Below, one piece after another: positions 606-55,460 of a stretch of DNA of 64,000 bases. Below the pieces are notes generated by a model. It had not been told where the DNA came from. It searched no databases and worked only from the letters and a program-made list of their open reading frames with translations. Source of the stretch: Candidatus Yanofskybacteria bacterium (GTDB taxonomy: Bacteria > Patescibacteriota > Minisyncoccia > 2-02-FULL-40-12 > IGHO2-01-FULL-4-A). Positions within the stretch are counted from its first letter, which is position 1, and each line of letters begins with the position of its first letter. The stretch lies in contig JACOZV010000002.1 in assembly GCA_016181175.1 (NCBI GenBank), positions 64,115-128,114 of the forward strand. The letters are read 5' to 3'. Both the position numbers and the translations under genes were made by a program.

Positions 606-719
606 TTAGCCCTGACGTTGTTTGTGTTTCGGATTACTGCAAATACAATACAACTTGCCTTTGCGGCGTACCAATTTGCAATTATTACATATTTTTTTTA
701 CAGAAACTCTGACTTTCAT
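606..719 (-). CDS. rpmJ: 50S ribosomal protein L36 (37 aa; not in ORF track because <60 aa)
   Basis: Minus-strand translation gives [37 protein letters not shown], a zinc-ribbon L36 (CxxC...CxxH pattern) that closely matches bacterial L36. It sits between infA and rpsM as in the canonical infA-rpmJ-rpsM-rpsK order. Confidence 0.9.
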
Positions 720-831
720 CCCGTTAGAAGTCGCTGCTACGCAGCCTTACGCATAAGTTACAGCTGCACAATAAGACTTTTGATTATTTATTAGTTATGA
801 CTGCAAACCCGTTAGGGCGACTTCTAACGGG
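720..831. mobile_element. MITE-like element, copy 1 (112 bp, perfect 15-bp TIR CCCGTTAGAAGTCGC; TSD TTCAT)
   Basis: Left end cccgttagaagtcgc (720-734) is the exact reverse complement of the right end gcgacttctaacggg (817-831). It is flanked by TTCAT on both sides (715-719 and 833-837). The interior is ~70% identical to copy 5 (54098-54210). It sits between rpmJ and infA. Confidence 0.75.
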
Positions 832-852
832 ATTCATATTTGTGCTTATGGC

Positions 853-1062
853 TTACCTGCGGTAGATGATTCTTCCTTTTGTCCCATCGGGGCTTAGTTC
901 CAGTGTTACTTTATCGCCAATTATCACCTTTATATGGTTCATTCTCATTTTTCCCGCTAAATACGCCAAAACTTCTCTACCATCGTTGAGTTTGACCTTA
1001 AATTTTGTGTCGGGCAAGGCATCTATAACAATGCCTTCTTCTTTTAATTTTTGATCACTCAA
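853..1062 (-). CDS. infA: translation initiation factor IF-1
   Basis: 69-aa ORF MSDQKLKEEGIVIDALPDTKFKVKLNDGREVLAYLAGKMRMNHIKVIIGDKVTLELSPDGTKGRI, an S1-like fold that closely matches bacterial IF-1. Confidence 0.95.
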   Translation of the reverse strand: MSDQKLKEEGIVIDALPDTKFKVKLNDGREVLAYLAGKMRMNHIKVIIGDKVTLELSPDGTKGRIIYRR

Positions 1063-1171
1063 GCTTTTATTTAAATAAAGAAAAAACCAGATTTCACTTG
1101 GAAATCAGGCTATTCTTAACCTTATTCCATTGTTTTTAAGTCTAGCAGAACGCTATTTGCATGTCAATCCC

Positions 1172-2869
1172 CTATTCTTTTTCTATGCTTATTTTAATTC
1201 TTGTCTGATCCTTCGGGATGCTTTTGACCCAAAATGGCGAAAGAGTAATACGGGCTGATTCAACTTCTTTCATGTTTTTAAAGTAATCACGTATGGCATC
1301 TTCTTTCATTCCCTGTATATCTTTGAGTATTTTTTCTTGATCTACTTTAACGGCTGCTTGTCCGGAAACTTGCATGTCAAAAGTCATTGTTGTGTTGTCA
1401 GTATTATTTTGGGGGTTGGTAGAGTTAAGTGTCAGGTTTTTTTCCACTAGTTCCAAATTACCCTTTTGGGAGATATAGTTTTTAATTAATTCTAAAATGT
1501 CAGATTCGCGAAAAGCTAGAGTACTAGCTGTCCCGCCAACTGTTATTTGGAAGTTTTCTACCGCCTCACCAACTTTGGCATTTGATATTGGCGGATCAAA
1601 TTTTATCATGATTGAATCCAGGATTTTTAGTTCGCCTGCCTGATCATTGAGTGATTGTAATATCTTTTCTTTAAGTTTTGCAGTAACAGCTTCCTGTCCC
1701 TTGATAAAATCTTCTTCGGTAACCACTTTTGAGAGTCCGATGACGCCGCCAGTCATTGGTTTTTCAGATTCAGCGTAGAAATCTTCAAACTTCGGTGTTC
1801 CTTCTAGACCGGGCACTGAAAAGGTGGTAGGAGCGATATTATATTCCGGTCCCGGCCTATCGGCATAAACTGCCGATTCAATCACGCCTTCTGTTGCTAC
1901 GGTGCCCGTCTTGGTCGCGGCTGGTACGGTGATAGTCTGGGGGATTCTGAAAATCAAGCCATCTTGTGATTTAAACCTGGTAGTGGCAACAAGACGTTGG
2001 GTCGTGAACCCCTTGTTGTATATAGTGATTTTACCGCTTGCTTTTTGGGCCACATCTTTCTGGCCGGTAGCCTCGAATGTACCGGACTCGCTGTCCTTAT
2101 AGCCAAAGCGCTGGCCGGGTATGCGATTAAAATCAAAATCTACTGATGTTGCCAAACTTGAGGCCGAAATCTTGAGTGGAAAGTTAAGGTCTTGTTTCTG
2201 GGGGCTGATTATTATTCGAGCGCTGCCAAGCGTAGTGTAGAGAACAAGAATTAAAACCAAAACCGCTCCGCTGGCTAGAAAAAATGGAGTTTTCCTGAAA
2301 ATTCCCGAAGCTTTTATTTTTTTTATTCGAGCAGTGTCTTGATTTGTCCGCGCCCAAACGCTTGTTATGTCGCCGGCAATTTTTTCTTCCTTAATTCCTC
2401 TTGTAATCTCCACGTCAAACGGGTTTGTTGTTTCTTCTTTAATTTTTATTGGCCGTTTTGTTTCATACTCTGGTCTTACAATATCTTTTATTACTTTGGG
2501 CATGGTTGTTGTTTTAACGGCTGCCAATTGAATGTCTGGCTCCGATTCAGCGTATTGTTCTACTGTGGTTTGTTCTGATGTACTTATCACTGTTGGACTG
2601 TCGTGTTTTTTGATTTCCGGAGACTTAATCAGCTCTATCTTATTTTGTGAAGCAAATTGTTCAACGATAGGATCGCTGGTCATTATGCTGACATGTTTGC
2701 CGGATGAATCCGCCTCGCGCTTGATGGCGGTGAAATGCTGGGATTGTCTTGCAAGCTTGGAACCCTTGGGAAAAATAAAAATTACCTCTTCAGACTCTGT
2801 ATTTTTGAACAAATCAAAAACCTCGTCAAAATTTTCATTTTTGAGGACATGGATTATTTTGGTTGACAT
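1172..2869 (-). CDS. hypothetical protein with a central transmembrane segment (565 aa)
   Basis: Long ORF. A hydrophobic helix FFLASGAVLVLILVLYTTLG lies mid-protein. No recognisable catalytic motif. It is upstream of infA on the same strand. Confidence 0.6.
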   Translation of the reverse strand: MSTKIIHVLKNENFDEVFDLFKNTESEEVIFIFPKGSKLARQSQHFTAIKREADSSGKHVSIMTSDPIVEQFASQNKIELIKSPEIKKHDSPTVISTSEQTTVEQYAESEPDIQLAAVKTTTMPKVIKDIVRPEYETKRPIKIKEETTNPFDVEITRGIKEEKIAGDITSVWARTNQDTARIKKIKASGIFRKTPFFLASGAVLVLILVLYTTLGSARIIISPQKQDLNFPLKISASSLATSVDFDFNRIPGQRFGYKDSESGTFEATGQKDVAQKASGKITIYNKGFTTQRLVATTRFKSQDGLIFRIPQTITVPAATKTGTVATEGVIESAVYADRPGPEYNIAPTTFSVPGLEGTPKFEDFYAESEKPMTGGVIGLSKVVTEEDFIKGQEAVTAKLKEKILQSLNDQAGELKILDSIMIKFDPPISNAKVGEAVENFQITVGGTASTLAFRESDILELIKNYISQKGNLELVEKNLTLNSTNPQNNTDNTTMTFDMQVSGQAAVKVDQEKILKDIQGMKEDAIRDYFKNMKEVESARITLSPFWVKSIPKDQTRIKISIEKE

Positions 2870-2929
2870 TAGCCAACCTAATTATAACACTTTTAATATA
2901 AACAATAAAAAAAACCGCGTATATGCGGT

Positions 2930-3526
2930 TTAACTTTGTCCAATCAGTTTTTGGTCGGGTTTTTCCATATCGGAAATATCTTGCCTTAAAACTCCAACTG
3001 TTTTTCGGAATTCATAAAACGTTAGAGGCTCGTTGTGAAAAGATGTCCATCTTAAAAAGCATGACTTAATACGAATATAAATGAAAAAACAAACAAGGAA
3101 ACCCATTGTTCCTGCAAAAAATTTAAAACCAAGATACCCAAGAGTATAAGTAGTATCACTTACTAACATCAATGAGCGTATAAATGACCAAAGAGAGATA
3201 GCCGATAACCCCAAGAGATTTAATTTTACAAAGTAGCGTAATGCCATGCTTAAAAGCAAAGATTTAAGAGTCATTTTATACACCTGCAGCTTCGTATTTT
3301 TGTTTTCCACAATGTCTTGGATTCTATAACTGGCTATGCCCAGTTTATTTACCAAAAAAAGTTCTACGGTACGTTTGGCTATTCCTCTGATATGCTCTAA
3401 CTTAGTTTGTCTTTTTTGTTCCAATTCCGATTTTTGTTTTTCTAATTCAAGCCATTTTTTCTCTCGGGCTTCCATTAATGCCAAAGCCAACGGGTCCTGC
3501 TTAAACAAGCTTGTTGAGTTTTTCAT
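2930..3526 (-). CDS. hypothetical coiled-coil/membrane protein (paralogue of 3545-4147)
   Basis: 198 aa. The N-terminus MKNSTSLFKQDPLALALMEAREKKWLELEKQKSELEQKRQ parallels the neighbouring gene's MENQTGLIGQDVLATAIQEAEQEKIKKLELKKQEKKEELEQ. Hydrophobic C-terminal segments. Last gene of the same-strand operon. Confidence 0.55.
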   Translation of the reverse strand: MKNSTSLFKQDPLALALMEAREKKWLELEKQKSELEQKRQTKLEHIRGIAKRTVELFLVNKLGIASYRIQDIVENKNTKLQVYKMTLKSLLLSMALRYFVKLNLLGLSAISLWSFIRSLMLVSDTTYTLGYLGFKFFAGTMGFLVCFFIYIRIKSCFLRWTSFHNEPLTFYEFRKTVGVLRQDISDMEKPDQKLIGQS

Positions 3527-3544
3527 ATGATCCCCCTTTTATCC

Positions 3545-4147
3545 TTATTCAACAAGTTTCTGGCACTTGACTTCCAATTCGGCAATATTTTTTATACAGC
3601 AAGCGATAACTTTAGTCACGAGTTTGCCTAGCGGGGGTATGTTTGGATAAGAGTTCTTGAACAAAGTTTGTAAAACTTTACCTATTGAGTCTGTATTACA
3701 AACCCAATCATAAGCCACGGTAAGCATCGTCATGATTGTAAATGACATAAGCGGAATAACCGGGCTGATTAATCTGGATATTGCCATCCATCCGAGTAAG
3801 AAAGTTAGAGGGAGGGTTAACAAGGTAAATGGTTTTGTCATCCAATATATTCTTCTCCATTTTTTTAGGTCCATGATGACAGAACGCAATACTTTGATTT
3901 TTGAGTGAGTATCGTTCAGTACCCTATCAATATGTTGTGGTGTCATGTCTGCAAGTTCTTTTAAGTATTGCCTGCACAACTGATCAGGCAGGCTATTTAA
4001 ATGGATAATATAATTTTTTTCTTGTTGTTCAAGCTCCTCTTTTTTTTCTTGCTTTTTTAACTCTAATTTTTTGATTTTTTCTTGTTCGGCTTCTTGTATG
4101 GCAGTGGCCAATACGTCTTGACCGATTAATCCAGTTTGATTTTCCAT
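3545..4147 (-). CDS. hypothetical coiled-coil/membrane protein (paralogue of 2930-3526)
   Basis: 200 aa. Charged coiled-coil N-terminus, then hydrophobic helices (FTLLTLPLTFLLGWMAISRLISPVIPLMSFTIMTMLTVAY). Tandem paralogue. Confidence 0.55.
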   Translation of the reverse strand: MENQTGLIGQDVLATAIQEAEQEKIKKLELKKQEKKEELEQQEKNYIIHLNSLPDQLCRQYLKELADMTPQHIDRVLNDTHSKIKVLRSVIMDLKKWRRIYWMTKPFTLLTLPLTFLLGWMAISRLISPVIPLMSFTIMTMLTVAYDWVCNTDSIGKVLQTLFKNSYPNIPPLGKLVTKVIACCIKNIAELEVKCQKLVE

Positions 4148-4161
4148 TTTCCCCTCCTTTT

Positions 4162-4947
4162 CTATGCAATTTGTAATGAGTTAAGCATGCTCTGGAATTT
4201 TTCCAGATTGAAAAGTTCTGCTTTTTCTGTTTTGACTTCCTTGGTTTCCAGCTCGCCATCCTTGACCCGCAAAAGCCACTCTCGGCTTAAAATAATCATC
4301 AGACCGTCAATGACTTTGCTTGGCCGTCTGAAGTCAAAATAATCCCGCAGTTCTTGATGGCTGATATCGTTTGACTCAACCCCGATCAACTGCCGGAAAC
4401 TTAGCCAGCCGTCCTCGGTTTTCAAAATGTGATTCAGTTTTATGTCCATCCTGACGGTTGTCAATTTGGACATTGACCCGCAACAGCGAATACTAGTTTC
4501 TTGAACCAGGTGTTCCCAATGAGCAAATGAGCGCAGTACCGTCATCAATGTTGCATCGCGCGGTTTGAAAATTTCCGCGTATTTCTGCAAGTCGGCAATC
4601 AATGTGGGATGTGAAGGAAAACAAGTCGTTTCATCCCAGGCAGTCGGACAACTTATGAGTTCGTCATTGAGATGGCTAATTAATTTATGTTGAGCTTCAA
4701 GAGCAATGGCTACAACATTAAGAAAATCAGAATTTTTGGTCAAAAGTTTCGAGTTGCCGATGGCAATTTTTGCGCGTATGGAATTGATTAGTAGTTGTAA
4801 CTTCTGCAGGCAGTCCGCATAGTCAATAAATATTGTGTTACCATGTTTCGTAAGCGCAAGTTCCTGGTTCACTACTGTCATTCTTGCTCCCAAATTTTCA
4901 AGGATCTTAGGTTGGTTTAACATAGCACAGATAATTGTTTCCGTCAA
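4162..4947 (-). CDS. hypothetical protein (261 aa)
   Basis: ORF in the tightly spaced same-strand operon (15-nt gap to the downstream gene). No motif recognised. Confidence 0.5.
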   Translation of the reverse strand: MTETIICAMLNQPKILENLGARMTVVNQELALTKHGNTIFIDYADCLQKLQLLINSIRAKIAIGNSKLLTKNSDFLNVVAIALEAQHKLISHLNDELISCPTAWDETTCFPSHPTLIADLQKYAEIFKPRDATLMTVLRSFAHWEHLVQETSIRCCGSMSKLTTVRMDIKLNHILKTEDGWLSFRQLIGVESNDISHQELRDYFDFRRPSKVIDGLMIILSREWLLRVKDGELETKEVKTEKAELFNLEKFQSMLNSLQIA

Positions 4948-4991
4948 ATTAAAAACTCTGGATTTCCAGAGTTTAAGTAAAAGAACAAAAA

Positions 4992-5975
4992 TTAAATGGA
5001 TTCTGCCGTTTGTGTCGGTTTTAGAGCAAGTTTTTCGGTGGTAGCTTGCAGGGTCTTGAGTTTGCCCATAATTCGGCTTTGGCCGGTTTGGAGCAGTTTC
5101 TTTAGGTCTGATGAAGCGATTCTGTAATTGTTAACCAAAGTTGCCGCATCTACCGCCGTTTCAATGGCGTTGAGCGAGGCCTGGAATGTCGCCACTACCG
5201 CATCCTTTGACGCGTACATTGACTGGTTCATGTCAACCATCGTCTGCGCCGAATCACGGATTACCGCAACCGGCCGGTAAATATTAACATAGTCAAAGTA
5301 TTGGCCTACGCCGCGGTGGAAAATTTCCAGTCCGGCGGAACAAACCTTGCTTAAAGTATGTATCAGCTCTTCGCCGATGATAATGTTAGATAGTAATTGT
5401 TCCAACAACTGAATCTTGCGTTTCTCCCGCTCTTCAGGATCTAAGATGCTAAATTCTTTGTCCAGAAGGCGCGCTACTTCTTCATAGATTGGCACGCCGG
5501 CCCGTTCGGCCATATAATGCTGTAACTGTTGGGCATCCCAGTTTTCTTTTTGCGCCGTTGCGATATCAGCCGCCAGATTATCCAGATCTTCAGCTTTGGC
5601 TTGGGCACAGGCAGCAATGTTACGCAATGCGTCCTGCGTATTGTTGACGTTGGTGCGCATTAGTCGTTCAATTAGCTCAAGAACGTCGTATTCCTCGGCT
5701 ATGAATTTCACCATGCCATCGGGCAGTGAGTCGTAGAATTTTCTGGGAATTATGAAATGCAATACCTGTGCCATTAAACTCCTTGTTCTGTCAGTCGGCA
5801 GGTCAAGAGCTTTCTTGACCAGTTTGTTGTTATTCGCCAGTTCTTCTTTGCTAGCGTTCAATGCCTTCATATTTTCTTTCAAAGACCTGTCGTTGGGTGA
5901 TTGGAAGTTTCTCTTATAACTTGAAACGGAAAACTTAGAAGATTGTCTGTTGCTTGGTACAATCATGTTTGTCAT
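4992..5975 (-). CDS. alpha-helical hypothetical protein (327 aa), possibly TelA-like toxic-anion-resistance family
   Basis: Predicted all-helical with coiled-coil character (…DALRNIAACAQAKAEDLDNLAADIATAQKENWDAQQLQHYMAER…). The TelA assignment is a weak recollection of family architecture, not a motif match. Confidence 0.5.
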   Translation of the reverse strand: MTNMIVPSNRQSSKFSVSSYKRNFQSPNDRSLKENMKALNASKEELANNNKLVKKALDLPTDRTRSLMAQVLHFIIPRKFYDSLPDGMVKFIAEEYDVLELIERLMRTNVNNTQDALRNIAACAQAKAEDLDNLAADIATAQKENWDAQQLQHYMAERAGVPIYEEVARLLDKEFSILDPEEREKRKIQLLEQLLSNIIIGEELIHTLSKVCSAGLEIFHRGVGQYFDYVNIYRPVAVIRDSAQTMVDMNQSMYASKDAVVATFQASLNAIETAVDAATLVNNYRIASSDLKKLLQTGQSRIMGKLKTLQATTEKLALKPTQTAESI

Positions 5976-5989
5976 GGTTTCCTCCTTTT

Positions 5990-6442
5990 TTAGTTCGGAA
6001 AATAATAATTATCTTTGCCGTATATTGATTTTAATTTCTTTGTATGAATACGATACCAGAAACTGTAAAGCAAAAATTCATCGTAGCTGTTGTTTCTAGT
6101 ATGTAGGTTAACAAGGTCTATAGCCATCGTTATTAATCCTACCGGGTTGCTGATCACAAAAATAATTTGTATAATTGACCAAAACTTAGAGCGGTCGTAA
6201 ATCTTTTCAGCCAATAATTCTTTTTCTCTTTTTTCCAGACTGTCTACTTGATTTTTAGACAAGCCCTCAAACTTGTAAGCGAGTACGTAAAAAATATTTA
6301 AAAATTCACTTTTTCTATTTTGTATTTGAGTAGCTTGTTTAGCAGTCCGATGTTTTTCTTGCAATTCCCCTAACTTTTTCAAGAATCTTTCTTTTTCAGT
6401 ATTTGCAATTAATTTATTATCCATTGTGGCCCCATTATCCAT
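5990..6442 (-). CDS. hypothetical membrane protein (150 aa)
   Basis: N-terminal charged or coiled segment plus hydrophobic helix FWSIIQIIFVISNPVGLITMAIDLV. 15-nt gap to the next gene. Confidence 0.5.
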   Translation of the reverse strand: MDNGATMDNKLIANTEKERFLKKLGELQEKHRTAKQATQIQNRKSEFLNIFYVLAYKFEGLSKNQVDSLEKREKELLAEKIYDRSKFWSIIQIIFVISNPVGLITMAIDLVNLHTRNNSYDEFLLYSFWYRIHTKKLKSIYGKDNYYFPN

Positions 6443-6444
6443 GG

Positions 6445-6666
6445 CTATCTCCTAAAATATTTCTTGGCTATCAAATATACAGTTCCCACAACTACAGTCG
6501 GCAAGATAAGCCACGACGCGACTATCCACGCAATCCCGATCAGTCCGAAGGTGACTTTTAACGCCACATATCCGCCGATTGCCAATGCGCCAACCTTAGC
6601 CAATCCAGTCCATCGGTTTCTCGGAAAAGATATTGTCCAAGTTTCTCTTTTCGCCAGGTTATTCAT
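6445..6666 (-). CDS. small two-TM membrane protein (73 aa)
   Basis: Two hydrophobic helices, LAKVGALAIGGYVALKVTFGLIGIAWIVASWLILPTVVVGTVYLIA. Overlaps the upstream gene by 8 nt. Confidence 0.45.
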   Translation of the reverse strand: MNNLAKRETWTISFPRNRWTGLAKVGALAIGGYVALKVTFGLIGIAWIVASWLILPTVVVGTVYLIAKKYFRR

Positions 6667-6955
6667 CGTTTTTTCCTAGTTGATTCTTGTTTTTTACGTT
6701 TGCTAATATATTTTCTACTAACAGTTTTATGTTTGAAGTTGCTTGTTCGTGCGTGAAACCCATACTTATCAATTTGTCATATTGATCAAGCAGTTGTTCT
6801 TCAAAAACTTGATAATTAATTTGGGCATTGATTTTGGTTTGGATAAATTTACCCACAGCAAACATTCCAGCCGCAATTTTGATCAGGGGTTTAGCTTTTC
6901 TAAACAGCTGTTCCATATCAACGTCAGTTTTTGAAGTCGTGTTTTTTGGTGTCAT
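6659..6955 (-). CDS. hypothetical small protein (98 aa)
   Basis: ORF in the operon. Helical with one hydrophobic stretch. Confidence 0.4.
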   Translation of the reverse strand: MTPKNTTSKTDVDMEQLFRKAKPLIKIAAGMFAVGKFIQTKINAQINYQVFEEQLLDQYDKLISMGFTHEQATSNIKLLVENILANVKNKNQLGKNDE

Positions 6956-6970
6956 GGTTCCCTCCTTTAA

Positions 6971-7459
6971 TTAGTAACCGTCGTAGTCATATTCCCCATT
7001 TATGGCCTTATTTAATATTTCGTGGCAAATAAAATCCTCGCCGCACATTTTTTGTAGTTTTTTATAGATGCGGCAGTAATTAAAATTGGTAAACCGGGTT
7101 GCCAAATAAATCCACCCCAAGATAGGGACAAAACCAAATAGAATTTCCAATTTTGCCCGTGGTTTAGCTTTCGTAAGAATCAATTTGCTTAAAATTTTTA
7201 GTTTTTCAGGGGTATAGGTTTCTAACTGCTTACGGTCAAGACCATAAAAAGCATAAGCAAACCTGACAAAGCATATTGAAAAATTGATTCTTAAATGGCA
7301 TAATTTTTCGGCTTTTTTAGCGGTTGGGTTTTGTCTCTGCATGTTCATTATTTCTGCCAGAAGTTGTTCTTCAGGTTTATTTGCAATCATTTGTTCTCGT
7401 TGGTTGGTCATCGTTTGTTCTTGGACAGTAGTATTAGCATCTGTCATAATTGCCTCCAA
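6971..7459 (-). CDS. hypothetical protein with C-proximal TM helix (162 aa); first gene of operon
   Basis: TM helix ILFGFVPILGWIYLATRF. Cys/His-containing tail CGEDFICHEILNKAINGEYDYDGY. Confidence 0.45.
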   Translation of the reverse strand: MEAIMTDANTTVQEQTMTNQREQMIANKPEEQLLAEIMNMQRQNPTAKKAEKLCHLRINFSICFVRFAYAFYGLDRKQLETYTPEKLKILSKLILTKAKPRAKLEILFGFVPILGWIYLATRFTNFNYCRIYKKLQKMCGEDFICHEILNKAINGEYDYDGY

Positions 7460-7555
7460 AGTAGAGATTTTTTGAGTATTTTAAAGGTTCAAAACTCACG
7501 GTTGAAAGTATAACTAAAACAATACAAGATGTCAAGTTAAATGGGGTATGGTAAC

Positions 7556-7583
7556 AAAAAAACGGGTTTACCCGTTTTTTTTG
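7556..7583. terminator. bidirectional intrinsic terminator
   Basis: aaaaaaacgggtttacccgtttttttt is a GC stem (cgggt/acccg) flanked by A-run and T-run. It lies between the alaS stop and the operon start. Confidence 0.75.
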
Positions 7584-7593
7584 ATGAAAATTG

Positions 7594-9309
7594 TTAACTA
7601 ATGTCTGCCCTTATCCGCCGAGTACCAGCGGAGATTGATTCTTCTTTTTTTATTTTAAATTTGCCGATTTCGCCGGTGTGAGCAACATGAGGCCCTCCGC
7701 AGAGTTCACGGCTGAATGGCTTATCATCGGAGCCAATTGTGTATACCTTCACAATCGGCGGATATTTGAGTTTGAAGAAAGCCAAAGCGCCTTTTTTGAG
7801 CGCTTCTTCGTATGGCATTTCCCGCGTAGTTACCGGGAGGTCTTGATCAATGGCTTTATTCACGATTTCTTCAACTTGTTTGATGTCTTCGCTAGTCATT
7901 TTGCGTGGGAATGTAAAGTCAAATCTTAAGCGTTCTGGGGTAATGTCAGACCCGGCTTGATGCACTTCTTCGCCCAGTACTTTGCGCAATGAAGCATGCA
8001 GAAGATGTGTTGCGGTATGCAGACGTGTAACCTTGGCCAATTCTTCCTCGCTGCCGGCTTTTAATTCCCCGGTGTCCAATATTAACCCATGTCCGCCAAA
8101 TTTTTTTTCTGCGCCGGCACGTGATTTGGCCTGGTGTTTTTTAAATTCCTCATCAAACGCTTCACGAGTTAGATTTTTGGCTTTTCCTGAATCTTTAATG
8201 CTTTCGTAAGGTAAACCGTAACTCTCATAAAGTTTAAAAGCGGCTAACAAATCAACAATTTCTAATTTATTTAATTCTGCCAAACCACGCGACATCGTTT
8301 TCCAAAATTTTTCGGCTTCTTCTTTGAATACCTCCCGTATTTTATTCTCGTCCAAATTGGCATAGAAATATTTATATTCGTGAATGACAGAGTTCAATAT
8401 CTCATAAAGATTGGCGGTATCATTTCTTTTTACTATGATTCGACGTATCAAACGTCTCAAAACATAGCCCTGATCTTTATTTGAAGGTAAAACTCCGTCA
8501 GAAATAAGAAAAACAACTGCCCTAGCGTGGTCAGCAATGATTCTCGGTAGCCCATTTCCAAAAGCAAAGAGGTCTGTTTCAAAAATATTTTTTTTGTTTT
8601 GGACTGCCATTGCCAGCCGCTCTAGCCCCATACCGGTATCCACGCCCCGCTTCTTTAGGGGTTCAAATTTAAAATCTTTTGTACAATTATATTCATTAAA
8701 AACAATATTCCAAATTTCAACACCTTTAACATATATTTCTGTTGTCGGTCCGCAGGGACCCTCGTCTCCGGTGGGACCCCAAAAATTATCACGCAATCCA
8801 TTTATTCCTTTTCTCGCCTCTATTTTTATGTTTGGGTCAATTTTCTTCCAAATTTGTTCCGAATCTTTATCTGTTGGCACGGGGTCGGCTTTAATTTTTT
8901 TTAATTCAAATATCTCATGCGTGTCTGCTCCGCCAAATACCGAGATATAATCAATCTCTAACCCCATTTCCTTGGTGATAAATTCATGGGCGTATTCAAT
9001 CGCTTCTTTTTTCCAGTAACCGCCGAAACTGAAATTCCCGAGCATTTCAAAGAAAGTAAGGTGCGATTCGTCCCCCACCTCGTCTATATCAGAGGTACGG
9101 ATGCATTTTTGGATGGATGCGGCGTTGAGAGAACCAAAATCTTTCATCGGATCGGCTTCGCCGGTATAGTATGGTTTGAACTGCTGCATGCCGGCGGTAG
9201 TAAAAAGCACCGATGGATCATTCGGCAAAAGCGAGCTTGATGGAACAATCTTGTGTCCCCTATCTTCAAAAAACTTTAGGAATTTTTTGCGTATCTCAAG
9301 GTGTGTCAC
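7594..9309 (-). CDS. alaS: alanine--tRNA ligase, short form (571 aa: catalytic, tRNA-recognition and editing domains; no C-Ala domain)
   Basis: N-terminus IRKKFLKFFEDRGHKIVPSSSLLPNDPSVLFTTAGMQQFKPYY is the AlaRS class II signature. The C-terminus has editing-domain motifs HTATHLLHASL and CGGPHV. GTG start at 9309. Confidence 0.85.
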   Translation of the reverse strand: MTHLEIRKKFLKFFEDRGHKIVPSSSLLPNDPSVLFTTAGMQQFKPYYTGEADPMKDFGSLNAASIQKCIRTSDIDEVGDESHLTFFEMLGNFSFGGYWKKEAIEYAHEFITKEMGLEIDYISVFGGADTHEIFELKKIKADPVPTDKDSEQIWKKIDPNIKIEARKGINGLRDNFWGPTGDEGPCGPTTEIYVKGVEIWNIVFNEYNCTKDFKFEPLKKRGVDTGMGLERLAMAVQNKKNIFETDLFAFGNGLPRIIADHARAVVFLISDGVLPSNKDQGYVLRRLIRRIIVKRNDTANLYEILNSVIHEYKYFYANLDENKIREVFKEEAEKFWKTMSRGLAELNKLEIVDLLAAFKLYESYGLPYESIKDSGKAKNLTREAFDEEFKKHQAKSRAGAEKKFGGHGLILDTGELKAGSEEELAKVTRLHTATHLLHASLRKVLGEEVHQAGSDITPERLRFDFTFPRKMTSEDIKQVEEIVNKAIDQDLPVTTREMPYEEALKKGALAFFKLKYPPIVKVYTIGSDDKPFSRELCGGPHVAHTGEIGKFKIKKEESISAGTRRIRADIS

Positions 9310-17508: not shown

Positions 17509-18577
17509 TTATTCCTCCGCCTAGAGCTTCTTGACCACGATAAAATACGGCTGATTGGCCTGGCGTTACAGCTTTGGCGGGATTTTTGAAACTCACAGTC
17601 AATCCTTTACCATCGGCAGTAATTGTTGCCGGAAGTGATTTACTGCGGTACCTGATTTTAACAAATACTTTTGCGGGTAATTTGGGTTTGTCGGTGACCC
17701 AACTTAGTTTTGTAACTCGCGTATTTTTAGATAGGAGTTCTTTATCACCTGTTTGTTTGGCCACATAAATAATATTTTTTTTGATGTTTTTACTGACTAC
17801 AAAATAAGGTCCTTGCCCGTCCTTTATGTCTAGACCGTGACGTTGGCCAATAGTGTAATAAAAAACGCTGTCATGCTGGCCAAGAATTTTACCTGTTTCA
17901 GACAATATAATATTTCCCGGTTTAGGCTTTATGTAATTTTTCAAAAACTCTTTCATATCCAACTGGCCCACAAAGCAAACGCCCTGACTATCTTTTTTAT
18001 TGTGATTGGGCAATCCGAATTTTTTAGCTAATTTTCTGACTTCCGGCTTTGTATAATCTCCAATTGGGAAAAGGCAATATTTTAATCGTTTTTGTGTTAG
18101 CGTCCATAAAAAGTAAGACTGGTCTTTGTTTTGGTCTTTGGCAGTACGTAGCACGTAGTCCGCAGTATGTGACTTACTACGTTCTGTCTTTCTGATATAG
18201 TGTCCTGTCGCAATATAATCCGCTCCTTCGGCCAATGCTTTTTTGAGGAATAAGCCAAATTTGATTTCCTTATTGCACATTACATCGGGATTGGGGGTTG
18301 TGCCTGTGCGGTAAGAGTTAATCATGTAACTAACGACTTCTTTTTCATATTCTTTTGAAAAATCCCAAGTTTTAAACTCGATGCCGATTTTTGAAGCCAC
18401 CCTCATGGCGTCTCTCCTGTCCTGTTCCCAGTTGCAGTAATTGGAAGCTGGCGGAGCCCATGGTTTAAAAAAGACCCCAGTCACATTATGGCCTTGTTTT
18501 TTTAAGAGTGCAGCCGCGACAGAAGAGTCTACGCCTCCCGACATTGCCACATAAACTTTGATTTTAGCTACTTTCAT
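17501..18577 (-). CDS. mnmA: tRNA-specific 2-thiouridylase MnmA
   Basis: PP-loop SGGVDSSVAAALL, plus conserved Cys and a C-terminal beta-barrel region. Confidence 0.9.
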   Translation of the reverse strand: MKVAKIKVYVAMSGGVDSSVAAALLKKQGHNVTGVFFKPWAPPASNYCNWEQDRRDAMRVASKIGIEFKTWDFSKEYEKEVVSYMINSYRTGTTPNPDVMCNKEIKFGLFLKKALAEGADYIATGHYIRKTERSKSHTADYVLRTAKDQNKDQSYFLWTLTQKRLKYCLFPIGDYTKPEVRKLAKKFGLPNHNKKDSQGVCFVGQLDMKEFLKNYIKPKPGNIILSETGKILGQHDSVFYYTIGQRHGLDIKDGQGPYFVVSKNIKKNIIYVAKQTGDKELLSKNTRVTKLSWVTDKPKLPAKVFVKIRYRSKSLPATITADGKGLTVSFKNPAKAVTPGQSAVFYRGQEALGGGIIK

Positions 18578-18651
18578 AATTAAATTATTTTACAACTTTT
18601 AATTAATTTTGTCACTTTATGCAAAATAAAACGGCTGTTTGCCGCTTTTTG

Positions 18652-18840
18652 TTACTCTTTCTGGTTGTGGCAGTTTTTTAAATGATCGTCTGTAGAGCCA
18701 TGCCTTATATCCCTTCCACAAAGTCCGCACCTAGAACAGCAGGCCATCACGTGTTTAATCATATTACTACTCCTATGGCAACCGCACCAGCATTGGTGCG
18801 GACATGATCCAGTAGCACAAACTAATGATTCTTCAGACAT
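18652..18840 (-). CDS. Cys-rich small protein (62 aa, 12 Cys)
   Basis: MSEESLVCATGSCPHQCWCGCHRSSNMIKHVMACCSRCGLCGRDIRHG. An AGGGG SD lies 9 nt upstream. Same strand as mnmA, 75 nt upstream of it. Confidence 0.45.
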   Translation of the reverse strand: MSEESLVCATGSCPHQCWCGCHRSSNMIKHVMACCSRCGLCGRDIRHGSTDDHLKNCHNQKE

Positions 18841-18913
18841 TCATACCCCTGTTTTTTTAAACATCTTTAACTCCAGTTAAATTATAGTAATTTTTGGAAA
18901 CAACAACAAGACC

Positions 18914-18942
18914 TTGCATTTCTTTTGGGTTTATGTTATAAT
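18914..18942 (+). promoter_or_regulatory. sigma-70-type promoter (TTGCAT-17-TATAAT)
   Basis: The -35 is TTGCAT (18914-19), spacer 17 nt, -10 is TATAAT (18937-42). It points through MITE copy 2 into the DUF1059 gene. Confidence 0.6.
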
Positions 18943-19004
18943 GATTTTGGTCGAATTAAAACAGATTATATATAGTCTATTTGAACAAAATACAAATTAT
19001 GAAT

Positions 19005-19114
19005 CCCGTTAGAAACAGCCCTAGCGGGTTCATAAAGATAAAGTATATTTTTAACAAGCCAGTACGGTAAAATATAAGCCAAACTTATGTTTTACTGTTA
19101 CTGTCTCTAACGGG
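19005..19114. mobile_element. MITE-like element, copy 2 (110 bp; TSD ATGAA)
   Basis: Ends cccgttagaaacag / ctgtctctaacggg. The interior is related to copy 4 (shared agccctaNcgggttcat and aaaacttatgt blocks). Flanks are ATGAA(t) and ATGAA. The right end abuts the ATG of the DUF1059 ORF. Confidence 0.7.
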
Positions 19115-19312
19115 ATGAAAACTTTAACATGCAAGGATTTAGATCCTACTTTGGCTTGTGATTATAAAGCCACGGGTATGGATGAAACAGAGGTCATGCA
19201 AAACATGATGACTCATGCCAGAGAAGCTCACGCCGACAAAGTCGGCGGCCTGACAGATGAGCAAATGACTGATATGATGACGCCGCACATCAAAGATGAA
19301 GCTGCGATGTAA
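19115..19312 (+). CDS. DUF1059-family small protein
   Basis: MKTLTCKDLDPTLACDYKATGMDETEVMQNMMTHAREAHA matches the MKxFxCxD...C DUF1059 pattern. Confidence 0.65.
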   Translation: MKTLTCKDLDPTLACDYKATGMDETEVMQNMMTHAREAHADKVGGLTDEQMTDMMTPHIKDEAAM

Positions 19313-25663: not shown

Positions 25664-27298
<1,635 letters not shown>

Positions 27299-27371
27299 TT
27301 AATTTCCAATTTTTAATTTTTAAACATTAGAAATTATTTATAAAATTATAAAATTAAAAATTATAAAAAAA

Positions 27372-27659
27372 TTATTCTATAATCGCTAATATGTTTTCTT
27401 CTTTTGCTATCAAGTATTCCTTGCTGTCAATTTTAATCTCGTCGGGTCCGTATTTGGTAAATAAAACTTTGTCGCCTTTTTTGACGTTCATTTGAATTTT
27501 TTTGCCACTCTCATCCATGCGTCCCGATCCGACTGCAATTATTCGGCCTTTTTCCGGTCGTTCCTTGTCTACGGTTTCAGGTAAAATAATCCCGCCCTTC
27601 TTTTTTTCTTCATAAAGCGGTTCTATTAGAACGCGGTCTCCCAATGGTTTAATTTTCAT
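27372..27659 (-). CDS. groS: co-chaperonin GroES
   Basis: MKIKPLGDRVLIEP...GGIILPETV. 95 aa. Confidence 0.95.
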   Translation of the reverse strand: MKIKPLGDRVLIEPLYEEKKKGGIILPETVDKERPEKGRIIAVGSGRMDESGKKIQMNVKKGDKVLFTKYGPDEIKIDSKEYLIAKEENILAIIE

Positions 27660-35911: not shown

Positions 35912-35977
35912 CCTAATCCCCAATTTGTCAAAGTTCTTTGTTGCAACAAGGATAAATAAAATATGTTTAACCGTCAA

Positions 35978-36048
35978 CCCCGTTAGAAGTCTCACTCGTG
36001 CCGAAAGCACGAGTCTGTTTGACCTCGGCGAGGCTACTTCTAACGGGG
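35978..36048. mobile_element. MITE-like element, copy 3 (short, 71 bp; TSD TCAA)
   Basis: Perfect 13-bp TIR ccccgttagaagt / acttctaacgggg. Internal hairpin ctcactcgtgc-cgaaa-gcacgagtc. Flanked by TCAA on both sides. Lies inside the Bat-like operon between the DUF58 gene and the next gene. Confidence 0.7.
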
Positions 36049-36087
36049 TCAATCCTTCTCAAATTAAAAAGTCGAGGTAAACCTCGA

Positions 36088-40376: not shown

Positions 40377-40441
40377 ATCCCCATAAATAACTATCTAAAA
40401 ATACGTTTGAAAAATACCAAGAAATATAGTAATGTGTCAAT

Positions 40442-40550
40442 CCCGTTAGAAGTAGCCCTAACGGGTTCATGAACCAAAGTTGATGCTTAATAATACTAGT
40501 GCAGTGACCATAAGTAAAACTTATGTGTTGCCGTTACTACTTCTAACGGG
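40442..40550. mobile_element. MITE-like element, copy 4 (109 bp; TSD TCAA(T/G))
   Basis: Ends cccgttagaagtagcc / ctacttctaacggg. Interior related to copy 2. Flanks TCAAT and TCAAG. Divergent intergenic region. Confidence 0.7.
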
Positions 40551-40656
40551 ATCAAGGTGGATCCCGAACGAAACAGCCTTTGCTGACAATAAAATAGGGT
40601 TACAGTGGCTATCTAAACGGGGATTAATAAACCCGACTTGTTAATAAGGCACGGAA

Positions 40657-42033
40657 ATGATTTACTCGTGTAAATCATTTCCTGTCTCGTACGGGATGGA
40701 AATTAACCTAAAAACAATTCCCAAGACCGCTGGCGTGTATTTTTTCCGTGATAAACATGGCAATTTGTATATTGGCAAAGCGGTCAACTTAAAAAATAGG
40801 ATTAGTTCATATTTCAATAAGCAGCCAAAAGACCCGCGTATCTCCAAAATGTTAGAAATGGCGGAGAAAGCCACGTTTAAAAAAACTGATTCCGAAATTG
40901 AAGCTTTGATACTTGAATCGCAGCTTATTAAAAAATATAAGCCGCCATTCAATGTAATGCTTCGTGATGACAAACAGTATTTTTACGTCGGATTTACCAA
41001 AGAAAAATTTCCCAAAATTTTTTTATCCCATCAAATACAAAACATCGGTCCGTTCACTGACGGCAACGCTTTAAAAGTAGCAATGCGTTTGTTACGCCGC
41101 TTATTTCCTTATTGTACCTGCGGGCAGGCGCACAATAACTTTTGCTTGAATTATCACATCGGTAATTGCATAGGGTTTTGCTGTCTGAAAAGTCAGAACC
41201 CGGAATCCAAAAAACAGAATCTAGAATTATATAATAAAAATATAAAAGCCATAAAAGAAATTTTAACCGGCAAACGAGATGTTTTGATTAAAAAATTAAA
41301 AAAAGAAATGTTGGGATTGGGCAAAAAACATGATTTTGAAAAGGCCATTGAATTCCGCAACAAAATCCAAAAACTGGAAAAGGTTTTTGAAAACGCCCAA
41401 GTTCTGCTTAATTCTAAATACACGATACTAAATACAAAAAAAGGGTGGAAACTGAATAATCCATTCGCTGAGCTTCAGAACGTTCTAAATTTACCACATC
41501 AGCCCAAAAGGATTGAGGGTTATGATGTTTCTAACATTCAGGGTAAGTTTGCCACTGGTGCAATGGTTGTTTTTATCAATGGCCATCCGGATAAAAGTCA
41601 GTATCGCAAGTTTAAAGTTGGGTCTGAAAGCGTGCCTAATGACATTGCCATGCTCAAAGAGATATTAACGCGGCGGTTTAATCACTCAAAGTGGCCGTAT
41701 CCTGATTTGATAATCGTAGATGGCGGTAAAGCGCAACTTAATATTGCGGCTAAAATCATCTATGGTCATCGCAAGACCATAGATCTTGCGATGACGCAAA
41801 ATCAGATTCCAATTATCGCTCTGACTAAAAATGTCAAACATCGCGGAGATCATATTTACACAACCAATCCAATAAAATTGTCTGCCAATAATTACGGGAC
41901 AAGTAAAAAAACGGCTATGCCGCTTGAAAAATTACCCAAGTCTGTTAAAAATTTAATTTTGCAAATTGATTCTGAAGCCCATAGGTTTGCAGTCAGTTAT
42001 TATAGAAAATTACATCTAGAGTCGGCAAAATAA
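40657..42033 (+). CDS. uvrC: UvrC homologue, short form (GIY-YIG + RNase H-like endonuclease domain; no C-terminal HhH)
   Basis: GVYFFRDKHGNLYIGKAVNLKNRISSYF and EALILESQLIKKYKPPFNVMLRDDKQY are the UvrC N-terminal block. IEGYDVSNIQG...IIVDGGKAQL is the UvrC endonuclease domain. 458 aa, versus about 600 aa for canonical UvrC. The start may be M14 at 40696. Confidence 0.75.
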   Translation: MIYSCKSFPVSYGMEINLKTIPKTAGVYFFRDKHGNLYIGKAVNLKNRISSYFNKQPKDPRISKMLEMAEKATFKKTDSEIEALILESQLIKKYKPPFNVMLRDDKQYFYVGFTKEKFPKIFLSHQIQNIGPFTDGNALKVAMRLLRRLFPYCTCGQAHNNFCLNYHIGNCIGFCCLKSQNPESKKQNLELYNKNIKAIKEILTGKRDVLIKKLKKEMLGLGKKHDFEKAIEFRNKIQKLEKVFENAQVLLNSKYTILNTKKGWKLNNPFAELQNVLNLPHQPKRIEGYDVSNIQGKFATGAMVVFINGHPDKSQYRKFKVGSESVPNDIAMLKEILTRRFNHSKWPYPDLIIVDGGKAQLNIAAKIIYGHRKTIDLAMTQNQIPIIALTKNVKHRGDHIYTTNPIKLSANNYGTSKKTAMPLEKLPKSVKNLILQIDSEAHRFAVSYYRKLHLESAK

Positions 42034-54044: not shown

Positions 54045-54097
54045 GTATTTTATATTGCTTACTCCTCAGGGCAAGTCCTTTGTTTTTCGTCATTCAT

Positions 54098-54210
54098 CCC
54101 GTTAGAAGTCGCTGCTATGCAGCTTTGCACACAAATTACAATTTACACAACAAAACTTTAAATTATTTGCTAGCTACGACCGCGAACCCGTCAGGGCGAC
54201 TTCTAACGGG
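54098..54210. mobile_element. MITE-like element, copy 5 (113 bp; same subfamily as copy 1)
   Basis: Perfect 15-bp TIR cccgttagaagtcgc (54098-54112) / gcgacttctaacggg (54196-54210). Interior ~70% identical to copy 1. TTCAT immediately to the left. It encodes the last 12 codons of the upstream 428-aa ORF. Confidence 0.75.
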
Positions 54211-55460
54211 ATAAATCCTTCTATTATATTTTTTTCTACCAACTCCTCAATCTTATCACGTCCTAGATATTCAATGAAAATTTTATTCCATAAAGCCTCC
54301 TGCTGGTGATAAAGATATTTTATCTCGCCTTTTTTGACCAATGACATCACCAAATCTATCAAGTCAAAACTTATCAATTCCTCATCTGTTTTACCACTAA
54401 TACCATCAGAAAAAAAGTCACCAACAAAATCTAATCCCTGCCAATAGCCAAATGCTTTGCCCCCAGCACCAAGAAATGTGCCAATTTTACCCAAATCTCC
54501 TTCGGCTTTATACCAATGTTCCGCTTCAGGGTTAAAATGCGGCTCCAAAAGACGAAAGTCATTTGGGTCATCTTTTGCCAGATATCTTTGCACTATTCGC
54601 AAACTATTTTCGTTCGGTAATGGCGCCTCACTTACATCACCGCGCAAAAGCGATTTTAATTTAATGGTAAAATCGGCCTCGCTGGAAAATTTCCTGAATA
54701 ATTTAGAATAAAATGGCACTTCGTTTAAATAGTGAAGAATAAGAGTGAAAAGTCTTAAGGTTTCACCGGGAGTATCAATTTTGAGTGGTATTACAAAAAT
54801 AATCCCCAATTCTTTGAGATGGCTAACGTTGTGATATTTTTTCTCCAGAAATTTTTCGGCAACATCTAACCATTGCGGCTCAAGGACCCTCAATTCCACT
54901 TCACGTTCTTCAAAATCACCGGCAGTTAATTCATTATATGCTTCATCAAAAAACTTATGCATCCAAGCCTCATCTTGAGCAAAACGGAGCGCGCTAAAAA
55001 CCTGCTCAAAACCCTGTTTCTTAACTAATTCAGCAACAGTCCCATAACCAAAATGGTTAAGAAGATTTTGCGGCGTAAACTTTTCGAGCATCTGGATTGC
55101 TTTTTCTTTTTTAATGAAGAACCCGGGTTTCGGCTTGTTGAGAGCAAAAGCTGTTTCGCAAATTTTTGCACAAACCAACGCGGTTTTTGAAAGATCTGGT
55201 TTACCCAAAAAATTATACAAGTGTTCATCCATGTGGGTTAGCCGTTTGATAAGAATATTATAAACATCCCCAGTACTGCATGAACCCAACGATAATCCCA
55301 ATTCTTCCAATGTTCTCCTGGTTAAAATCGTATTTTCCTCGGCTATTCGTTCCATAACACCACTTTTACCAGTCAGTTTATTCATCTTTTGCTCCAAATC
55401 TAAAAGCACCTCCGGTGGGGTACGTAATATGCGAGCAAGTTTTGTATGGACTTCTGACAT
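54174..55460 (-). CDS. hypothetical protein (428 aa)
   Basis: Long ORF with no recognisable motif. The C-terminal ...PLEVALTGSRS* is translated from MITE copy 5. Confidence 0.55.
   Translation of the reverse strand: MSEVHTKLARILRTPPEVLLDLEQKMNKLTGKSGVMERIAEENTILTRRTLEELGLSLGSCSTGDVYNILIKRLTHMDEHLYNFLGKPDLSKTALVCAKICETAFALNKPKPGFFIKKEKAIQMLEKFTPQNLLNHFGYGTVAELVKKQGFEQVFSALRFAQDEAWMHKFFDEAYNELTAGDFEEREVELRVLEPQWLDVAEKFLEKKYHNVSHLKELGIIFVIPLKIDTPGETLRLFTLILHYLNEVPFYSKLFRKFSSEADFTIKLKSLLRGDVSEAPLPNENSLRIVQRYLAKDDPNDFRLLEPHFNPEAEHWYKAEGDLGKIGTFLGAGGKAFGYWQGLDFVGDFFSDGISGKTDEELISFDLIDLVMSLVKKGEIKYLYHQQEALWNKIFIEYLGRDKIEELVEKNIIEGFIPLEVALTGSRS

Follow-up and report, generated by a model that had tools for sequence, protein, structure and literature searches.

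Why do short palindromic repeats lie flush against the start codons of several genes in a stretch of Candidatus Yanofskybacteria DNA? The stretch, called the window below and analysed over its whole 64,000 nt (40% G+C), contains seven repeats with the termini YCCCGTTAGA…TCTAACGGGR or a close variant, and more than 100 copies in total were found in about 20 genomes. The repeats probably constitute a superfamily of non-autonomous DNA transposons which resembles MITEs, the miniature inverted-repeat transposable elements, is distributed across Patescibacteria and prefers A|TGRA as its insertion site. Of the properties of MITEs, small size, terminal inverted repeats, target duplications together with empty sites, and many dispersed copies and subfamilies were found. 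The MITE kind is already known, but the oriented insertion that rebuilds a start codon is new, and to our knowledge this would be the first mini-transposon family that prefers the start codon.

Anatomy of the copies and the rebuilt start codon

The search of the window began with CCCGTTAGA and its inverse and was widened to all inverted termini that start with CCCG. All five copies with common termini that had been listed in a first-pass annotation were recovered, those with the ends CCCGTTAGA…TCTAACGGG lying at 720-831, 19005-19114, 35979-36047, 40442-40550 and 54098-54210, but two others had been missed (13259-13335 and 40563-40695). With at most one mismatch, CCCGTTAGA gave 19 matches, a count attained by no shuffle out of 100; 9.3 were expected. 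The copies, given with their terminal base pair, and the features belonging to them are as follows:

606-719, minus strand: rpmJ (ribosomal protein L36, 37 aa, full-length); start codon 719-717, rebuilt by the insertion
719-832, minus strand: copy 1, 112-nt core plus a terminal T…A pair; the rpmJ ATG takes its A from the 3' end of this copy (719)
13258-13336 (core 13259-13335), no strand assigned: degenerate 77-nt copy, CCCATTAGAGAG…CTCTCTAACGGG, with the HU gene on one side and the gene for an ECF sigma factor on the other
18917-18945, plus strand: TTGCAT-17-TATAAT, resembling a promoter, its -10 TGn-extended; distance to ATG(1) of copy 2, which lies downstream, 53 nt
19004-19115, plus strand: copy 2, 110-nt core plus a T…A pair; the ATG of the DUF1059 gene takes its A from the 3' end of this copy (19115)
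35978-36048, plus strand: copy of the 69-nt subfamily with a C…G terminal pair; TCAA duplicates 35974-35977 and 36049-36052
40441-40551, plus strand: 109-nt copy; TCAA duplicates 40437-40440 and 40552-40555
40562-40696, plus strand: variant-terminus copy, CCCGAACGAAACAG…CTGTCTCGTACGGG, 133-nt core; TGGA duplicates 40558-40561 and 40697-40700
54097-54211, minus strand: 113-nt copy, inserted at A|TTTA where a conserved hypothetical gene (428 aa) has its last codons

The family was then followed through one genome per species by scanning for the 5' module CCCGTTAGANNNNGCCCTNNCGGGTT with unconstrained flanks. The scan yielded 102 matches, spread over 82 loci; of the roughly 20 assemblies concerned, seven are labelled Saccharibacteria, seven Yanofskybacteria, five 'Patescibacteria group' and one Parcubacteria; these loci and the window together are the basis of the family-wide counts below. 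The first and last bases of the element could pair in every copy (75 with T…A, 13 with C…G, none mixed), and the four flanking bases were identical on both sides in 65 of 88 copies. The duplicated sequence was TGAA in 40 cases, TGGA in 13, TGAG in three, and TGCG, TCAA and TTGA in two each, besides others. The target duplication is 4 bp, with one extra base pair of the element at the tips. A 5-bp ATGAA duplication, as first proposed, is rejected on the terminal pairs and on an empty and occupied pair of sites (see below), since elements with a C…G pair give ATGAA-C…G-TGAA; moreover, ATGAA stands on both sides of just two window copies, not three.

The terminal purine of the element and the TG of the downstream duplicate form the rebuilt start codon, which is ATG in T…A elements and GTG in C…G elements, while the upstream copy in the latter remains ATG. 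The upstream codon is referred to as ATG(1) and the gene-proximal one as ATG(2). Copy 1 carries TGAA duplicates at 833-836 (upstream) and 715-718 (gene-proximal), with ATG(1) at 835-837 and the end of infA 15 nt upstream of ATG(1). It does abut the ATG of rpmJ, as had been claimed, and the gene encodes a full-length L36 product. The placement of copy 2 against the ATG of the DUF1059 gene was likewise correct; ATG(1) lies there at 18999-19001, and the TGAA duplicates at 19000-19003 and 19116-19119. The third window copy that abuts a true start codon is that at 40563-40695, with the termini CCCGAACGA…TCGTACGGG. Its 3' A (40696) serves as the first base of the true uvrC ATG (MEINLKTIPKTAGVYFF…), and the longest-ORF (open reading frame) call for uvrC, at 40657, begins inside the element. 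In annotation, the elements mislead start-codon calls, as in uvrC, and they also alter protein C-termini.

Two further copies lie away from start codons. The copy at 40442-40550 is in the spacer between the divergent aminotransferase gene and uvrC, and that at 35979-36047 lies inside a Bat-like operon, as previously noted, just downstream of the DUF58 gene and before the following gene of the operon. A TTG within the duplicate of the latter copy was considered as a start codon and rejected, the likelier start being a downstream ATG (MFRKVMILSF…). The degenerate copy at 13259-13335 has no matching duplication in its flanks. It also forms one boundary of about 2.3 kb that is extra in the window (10777-13335) in comparison with locus L025 (4891-5125), from the HU gene to tRNA-Gly, and that includes an HTH protein gene, a 108-aa ORF and the ECF sigma factor gene.

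The copy at 54098-54210 changes a protein. It supplies the last 12 codons of the 428-aa ORF (54174-55460), the tail of which reads …GFI-PLEVALTGSRS; because homologues end in …NII[DE]GFI[KR]L, the tail is element-coded, in agreement with the first-pass annotation. The orthologue in L167/L168 has a decayed copy at the same site with TTTA on either side, and the window copy was therefore inserted at A|TTTA. The pre-insertion sequence shown by L167/L168 is GGATTTATTAAATTATGAAAACT, in which the TGA of the gene overlapped the ATG of fba. A ATGAATGAC mini-ORF of 12 codons had been described on the fba side; the ORF exists, but its flank is not the duplication partner, as the TTTA/TTTA pair in L167 shows. 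A 403-aa NCBI protein from Candidatus Yanofskybacteria is 100% identical to the 428-aa ORF, and the N-terminus of the database protein (P0001) is annotated 25 residues shorter than in the ORF and in the homologues. Other palindromic elements occupy the orthologous spacers from this gene to fba (L165 2461-2857 and L169 1383-1539). The element in L169 has the form TAGTACCTTCTAGGGA…TCCCCAGAAGGTACTA, and that of about 200 nt in L165 contains TTTTCGTCATTCAT, the reverse complement of ATGAATGACGAAAA in the window flank 54084-54097.

Copy sizes range from 48 to 133 bp, and the subfamilies of 48, 63-80 and 108-122 nt have only the termini in common. The terminal stem comprises 15 bp with six covarying positions, and at least 95% of its pairs are Watson-Crick over 84 copies. 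Inside the copies there are only incidental ORFs of 11-53 codons and no transposase gene. Nested and composite copies are present among the loci. Elsewhere in the window, positions 27294-27376 form a very A+T-rich inverted repeat, the 41-nt arms of which are 73% complementary and 1 nt apart.

Mobility and choice of target

An empty target site is found in the window itself (10262-10276, plus strand), where the 3' end of tRNA-Arg is followed by 'cat' and then ATGAAAATTTGG. The orthologous site in L025 is occupied (tRNA-Arg-cat-ATGAA-T[112 nt]A-TGAA-AATTTGG). The comparison of empty and occupied orthologous sites confirms insertion and thus the mobility of the elements, and the empty sites run counter to a leader motif passed on by vertical descent. 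For the junction of infA and rpmJ, relatives of the window infA were taken from metagenomes. The site is empty in seven of the closest relatives, where -4 to 16 nt separate the two genes; in others, copies of 112 nt (window, L030) and 114 nt (L026), a 109-like variant (L086) and the 69-nt subfamily (L087, L088 and L031) stand at the rpmJ ATG. Several subfamilies have thus hit the rpmJ start independently. The upstream ATG is mutated to ATT in L087 and L031, with the gene-proximal ATG intact. Furthermore, the start of a yraN-like (UPF0102) gene carries two different subfamilies in two assemblies, and the start of the L19 gene carries 111-nt copies in two assemblies, which may come from a common ancestor. 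One assembly holds five composite copies, almost identical to each other, at separate loci, which argues for recent activity.

Some observations concern the same places. A 70-aa ORF (MKIWKWLLYITNNEE…; 10189-10475) begins 3 nt past the 3' end of tRNA-Arg, so that processing of the tRNA would make its mRNA almost leaderless. Unrelated hairpin-forming insertions occur in the infA-rpmJ spacers of L085 (1275-1350), L091/L093 (1711-1782) and L098 (1702-1817); the one in L085 is an (AGCGGTT)n…(AACGCTN)n palindrome, and rpmJ starts with TTG in L091. The junction seems to be a general hot spot. A short-read contig (L170) ends about 90 nt or less from the rpmJ-side copy, which is consistent with an assembly break caused by the repeat.

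The target is well defined. At 71 unique sites the preferred bases were A in 61, T in 71, G in 64, R in 69 and A in 64, and the logo held no information beyond these five A-T-G-R-A positions. A real gene start was found at the downstream ATG or GTG in 76 of 91 copies (84%) when composites were resolved. The downstream proteins open in the manner of canonical N-termini, and Pfam domains begin at residues 1-16 in all ten that were sampled; the sampled products include SSB, GroES, L4, L19, SecG, YidD, TyrRS, CysRS and the 5'-exonuclease domain of PolA. The ratio of start-like to other ATGRA was 45:11 at occupied and 305:2359 at unoccupied sites (odds ratio 32, p = 3e-31), and RA occupies positions 4-5 in more than 85% of start-site copies as against 30% of background genes. 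The MITE-like behaviour and the bias to start codons followed by Lys or Asn (TGAA), which had been suggested from the window, are thus borne out by the wider tally, and the bias extends to Asp and Glu (TGGA).

For comparison, 601 kb contained 91-215 non-coding ATGRA and 3,554-8,040 non-coding TNNA sites. The occupancy per site was about 28% at start ATGRA; non-coding ATGRA reached no more than 2-5%, and other TNNA 0.1-0.2%. Hence two effects are superimposed: a preference of about 20-fold for (A)TGRA over other T-N-N-A sites, and a further 5-12-fold excess at start codons. The earlier proposal that the bias follows simply from the likeness of the motif to ATGAA does not account for the second. 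Orientation is equally strict. In elements with an asymmetric 5' hairpin module the module lies upstream in every gene-start copy, the sole reversed candidate (L050) being away from any gene, and in the variant-terminus family the same end lies upstream in four of four start-site copies. Of 58 start sites, 34 follow a co-directional ORF that stops no more than 20 nt before ATG(1) or runs into it, with ATGA overlaps at 13 of them. In these overlaps the upstream duplicate retains the TGA stop of the preceding gene, and the downstream gene keeps its ATG. A selfish element can thus spread in genomes that are about 90% coding, because its ends restore the downstream start and, at ATGA overlaps, also the upstream stop.

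The 4-bp staggered duplication together with the inverted termini points to a DDE-type transposase supplied in trans, which would make a staggered 4-bp cut. Its machinery would intrinsically prefer (A)TGRA over other T-N-N-A sites, and a survival filter or a targeting bias would then enrich start codons. A sister family, found in the same loci, bears on this preference. It has the termini CCCCGCCCTTGAA…TTCAAGGGCGGGG and shares the outermost YCCCG…CGGGR and the 4-bp duplication, but its duplications are TTGA/TCAA and its copies lie away from gene starts. Its members are:

L007 1324-1391
L019 7372-7493
L029 2750-2827
L056 4328-4446
L079 3361-3440
L091 1301-1363

Since this family has its own target in the same loci, the choice of target tracks the termini, which favours intrinsic specificity.

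An alternative is that the target is a loose T-N-N-A hit in either orientation, and that sense copies at start codons accumulate through usefulness or special protection. The element might then be a mobile cis-acting RNA module, such as a device for translational relay or coupling, a stem that stabilises the 5' end, a processing site for RNase III or the binding site of a regulator that would join genes in a regulon. Several observations agree with this. Non-start insertions are mostly at non-TG T-N-N-A sites, with TCAA and TTGA at 2:2 relative to the orientation of the element, and GTG and TTG start codons are also occupied (L024, L001 and L026). Where position 5 is A, the choice between A and G at position 4 is roughly that of ordinary second-codon usage (chi-square by hand, p about 0.04). 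The orientation at gene starts is 0 versus about 76, the two arms covary as strictly as in a structured RNA, and some compensatory pairs occur in interior hairpins. However, a loose target requires more than 100-fold enrichment over the 3,500-8,000 non-coding TNNA sites of the same DNA, and non-coding ATGRA still has about 20 times the per-site occupancy of other TNNA. A nested copy, moreover, was inserted at an internal, non-start ATGAA of another element, the sister family with other termini has a target of its own, and the interior of the elements is poorly conserved. We therefore regard the loose target as rather unlikely.

Directed targeting would place the cause in a host or element factor that steers insertion to starts of translation or transcription, for example to the open promoter complex at leaderless genes. 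It would agree with the excess occupancy of start sites over the same motif elsewhere and with the scarcity of Shine-Dalgarno sequences, a core motif of which precedes only 11% of ORFs. It would also suit the TANNNT -10 box found 6 nt upstream of the ATG in 14% of ORFs, a peak that suggests, from sequence, widespread leaderless mRNAs in these Patescibacteria. Yet an enrichment of leaderless genes is rejected, as such a box is present at about 22% of occupied sites, the same as in the background; occupied sites are mostly operon-internal junctions, and no candidate factor was found in this material. This explanation is accordingly very improbable. Movement of the hairpins by an HUH/Y1 single-strand transposase (IS200/IS605-type or REPIN-like), with the downstream 'duplicate' as part of the element, would fit the strictly oriented and sequence-specific insertion, the compensatory changes in the hairpin arms and the unequal flanks (downstream TGAA in 13 of 15 such copies), but it is hardly credible, because the flanking 4-mers co-vary by site in all subfamilies (TGGA/TGGA 13, TGAG/TGAG 3, TGCG/TGCG 2, also TCAA, TTGA, TAAA and TTAA), the long terminal inverted repeats are lacking in IS200/IS605 ends, no GTAG or CGTC tag is present, and the TGAA asymmetry is accounted for by selection on the start and second codon of the gene.

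Initiation beside a hairpin

The insertion of the MITE-like element at A|TGRA places a hairpin of 70-130 nt between the native upstream signals and the start codon of essential genes, including those for ribosomal proteins, GroES, SSB, tRNA synthetases and PolA. Each window copy folds into a branched hairpin that the long terminal stem closes; relative to shuffled sequences the z-scores lie between -4.5 and -7.1. When 50 sites were folded by partition function, the unpaired probability from ATG(2) to +14 was 0.53 when occupied and 0.52 when empty (p = 0.81), and that of the 15 nt upstream of ATG(2) was 0.05 when occupied and 0.51 when empty. The element is thus predicted to be a self-contained side branch that leaves the start codon accessible. 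We hypothesize that insertions are tolerated because the RNA would fold on itself, the 15-bp terminal stem closing the branched hairpin while the start codon and the early coding region stay single-stranded.

ATG(2) could then be reached by two routes. The first would be direct initiation without a Shine-Dalgarno sequence; none was found in the 3' arm of the element. The second would be a relay, in which initiation takes place at ATG(1), a short M-N/D-P-V-R-S-… ORF is translated, the terminal stem is melted and re-initiation follows at ATG(2). A retained ATG(1) does open a short ORF of 11-53 codons set by the conserved 5' arm (M-N/D/S-P-V-R-S-R/S-P-N/S-G-L/F…), which in eleven copies of the 73/76-nt subfamilies stops at the TAA of TCTAACGGG, 4 nt before ATG(2). 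Such genes make initiation testable in organisms that are poor in Shine-Dalgarno sequences and partly leaderless. That the start codon is the niche of the element, either through insertion steered there or because the element is kept as a mobile translational module (for example relay ORF plus hairpin) in Shine-Dalgarno-poor Patescibacteria, is a notion that we entertain tentatively, and it is more doubtful than the transposon superfamily itself.

Other routes were considered. An outward promoter giving a leaderless mRNA at ATG(2) is rejected, as by inspection the 3' arm is without an acceptable -10 box. An intron or bypass reading is rejected as well, since translation continues into the element and yields a C-terminal tail at 54098-54210 and in L167; furthermore, elements are absent from gene interiors, and no ribozyme match was obtained. 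With Rfam 15, only tRNAs in the window matched at the gathering score, and no family did so on the elements; a permissive search gave best element matches of E >= 0.2, far under the gathering scores. Upstream of copy 2, the TTGCAT-17-TATAAT sequence reported before is present and its TGn-extended -10 is good, but TTGCAT at 18917 has only 3/6 matches to a -35, for which reason the promoter scan did not list the site. If this promoter is active, copy 2 would be part of the 5' leader of the DUF1059 gene. A good promoter-like TTGACA-17-TAGACT with a TG lies upstream of infA (1139-1167, minus strand), and a single transcript from it would cover infA, the element and rpmJ.

Several points weigh against a transposon with an intrinsic A|TGRA preference whose hairpin serves or spares translation. 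The motif alone fails to explain the 5-12-fold excess of start over non-coding ATGRA, and 8 of 15 non-start insertions are at non-TG sites (TCAA, TTGA, TAAA, TAAG, TTAA and CGCA), so that the intrinsic specificity may be looser than the logo implies. Neither a transposase nor a full-length partner turned up in the window, in the 82 loci or in viral contigs: the scan of viral contigs with the 5'-module pattern gave 0 matches, no ORF was multi-copy among the 922 ORFs of the loci, Pfam showed no transposase in the genes adjoining the window copies, and all unpaired termini in the loci were parts of nested or composite copies, none of an autonomous partner. ATG(1) is lost in about one fifth of copies, and the length of its ORF varies; therefore the relay cannot be obligatory. 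Within the terminal stem, G·U is not favoured over A·C mismatches, which gives no clear sign of RNA-level selection after insertion and also speaks against the usefulness assumed with a loose target. A transposase that binds double-stranded ends separately does not need the covariation of the tip and of positions 11-15, and this perfect covariation hints at a requirement for a hairpin, in single-stranded DNA or in RNA. Finally, the gene calls in the loci are ORF heuristics.

Comparison with known systems

Bacterial MITEs such as RUP, ERIC and MITEAba12 are likewise short, non-coding, dispersed and non-autonomous, with inverted termini, a target duplication and a hairpin when transcribed. Unlike them, the present elements target the start codon in one orientation and rebuild it, and their hosts are Patescibacteria. 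The terms 'start codon' and 'initiation codon' are absent from a 2024 review of prokaryotic MITEs, and in full-text literature searches neither these elements nor MITEs that target start codons were found described. The Correia elements (CREE) of Neisseria are also hairpin MITEs of 100-150 bp beside genes; their junction with the duplicated target creates a -10 box, and in mRNA RNase III cleaves their stems. They have a TA duplication and 26-bp repeats and occur in both orientations without start-codon placement, whereas the duplication here is the 4-bp TGRA. We take the 26-bp Correia repeat to be unrelated in sequence to the present elements.

A possible lead to a transposase is the IS1380/piggyBac group. 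Its CC(C)-initial ends (CCCTAGAAAG for piggyBac), 4-5-bp T…A duplication (TTAA) and asymmetric subterminal repeats presumably resemble those of the present elements, and the non-start duplications here (TTAA, TCAA, TTGA, TAAA and TTTA) are one step from the piggyBac TTAA. However, the preferred site here is TGRA after A rather than TTAA, and no such transposase was found near any copy.

Rickettsia palindromic elements (RPE) are similarly palindromic and persist in compact genomes where the gene product survives, and some contribute coding sequence. They insert in frame within genes, whereas the present elements lie flush with the start codon, and a protein is altered only where an element hits the last codons of a gene (window 54098-54210, L167, L072 and L080). 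Split ribosome-binding sites and translational coupling, as in phage T4 gene 38 and the MS2 coat-replicase pair, would be alike only in the way they work, in that a stable hairpin separating the start codon from initiation signals upstream is tolerated, or translation upstream opens a structure so that initiation can follow downstream; those structures are fixed and gene-specific, whereas the present elements are mobile DNA. Integron attC sites are imperfect palindromes too (57-141 bp), with conserved ends, a variable interior and a position just upstream of the next gene. Nevertheless, attC reads 5' RYYYAAC … GTTRRRY 3' and the present ends are reversed (GTTAGA at the 5' and TCTAAC at the 3' end), and while attC sites are arrayed and have no duplication, the present copies are dispersed and carry a 4-bp target duplication.

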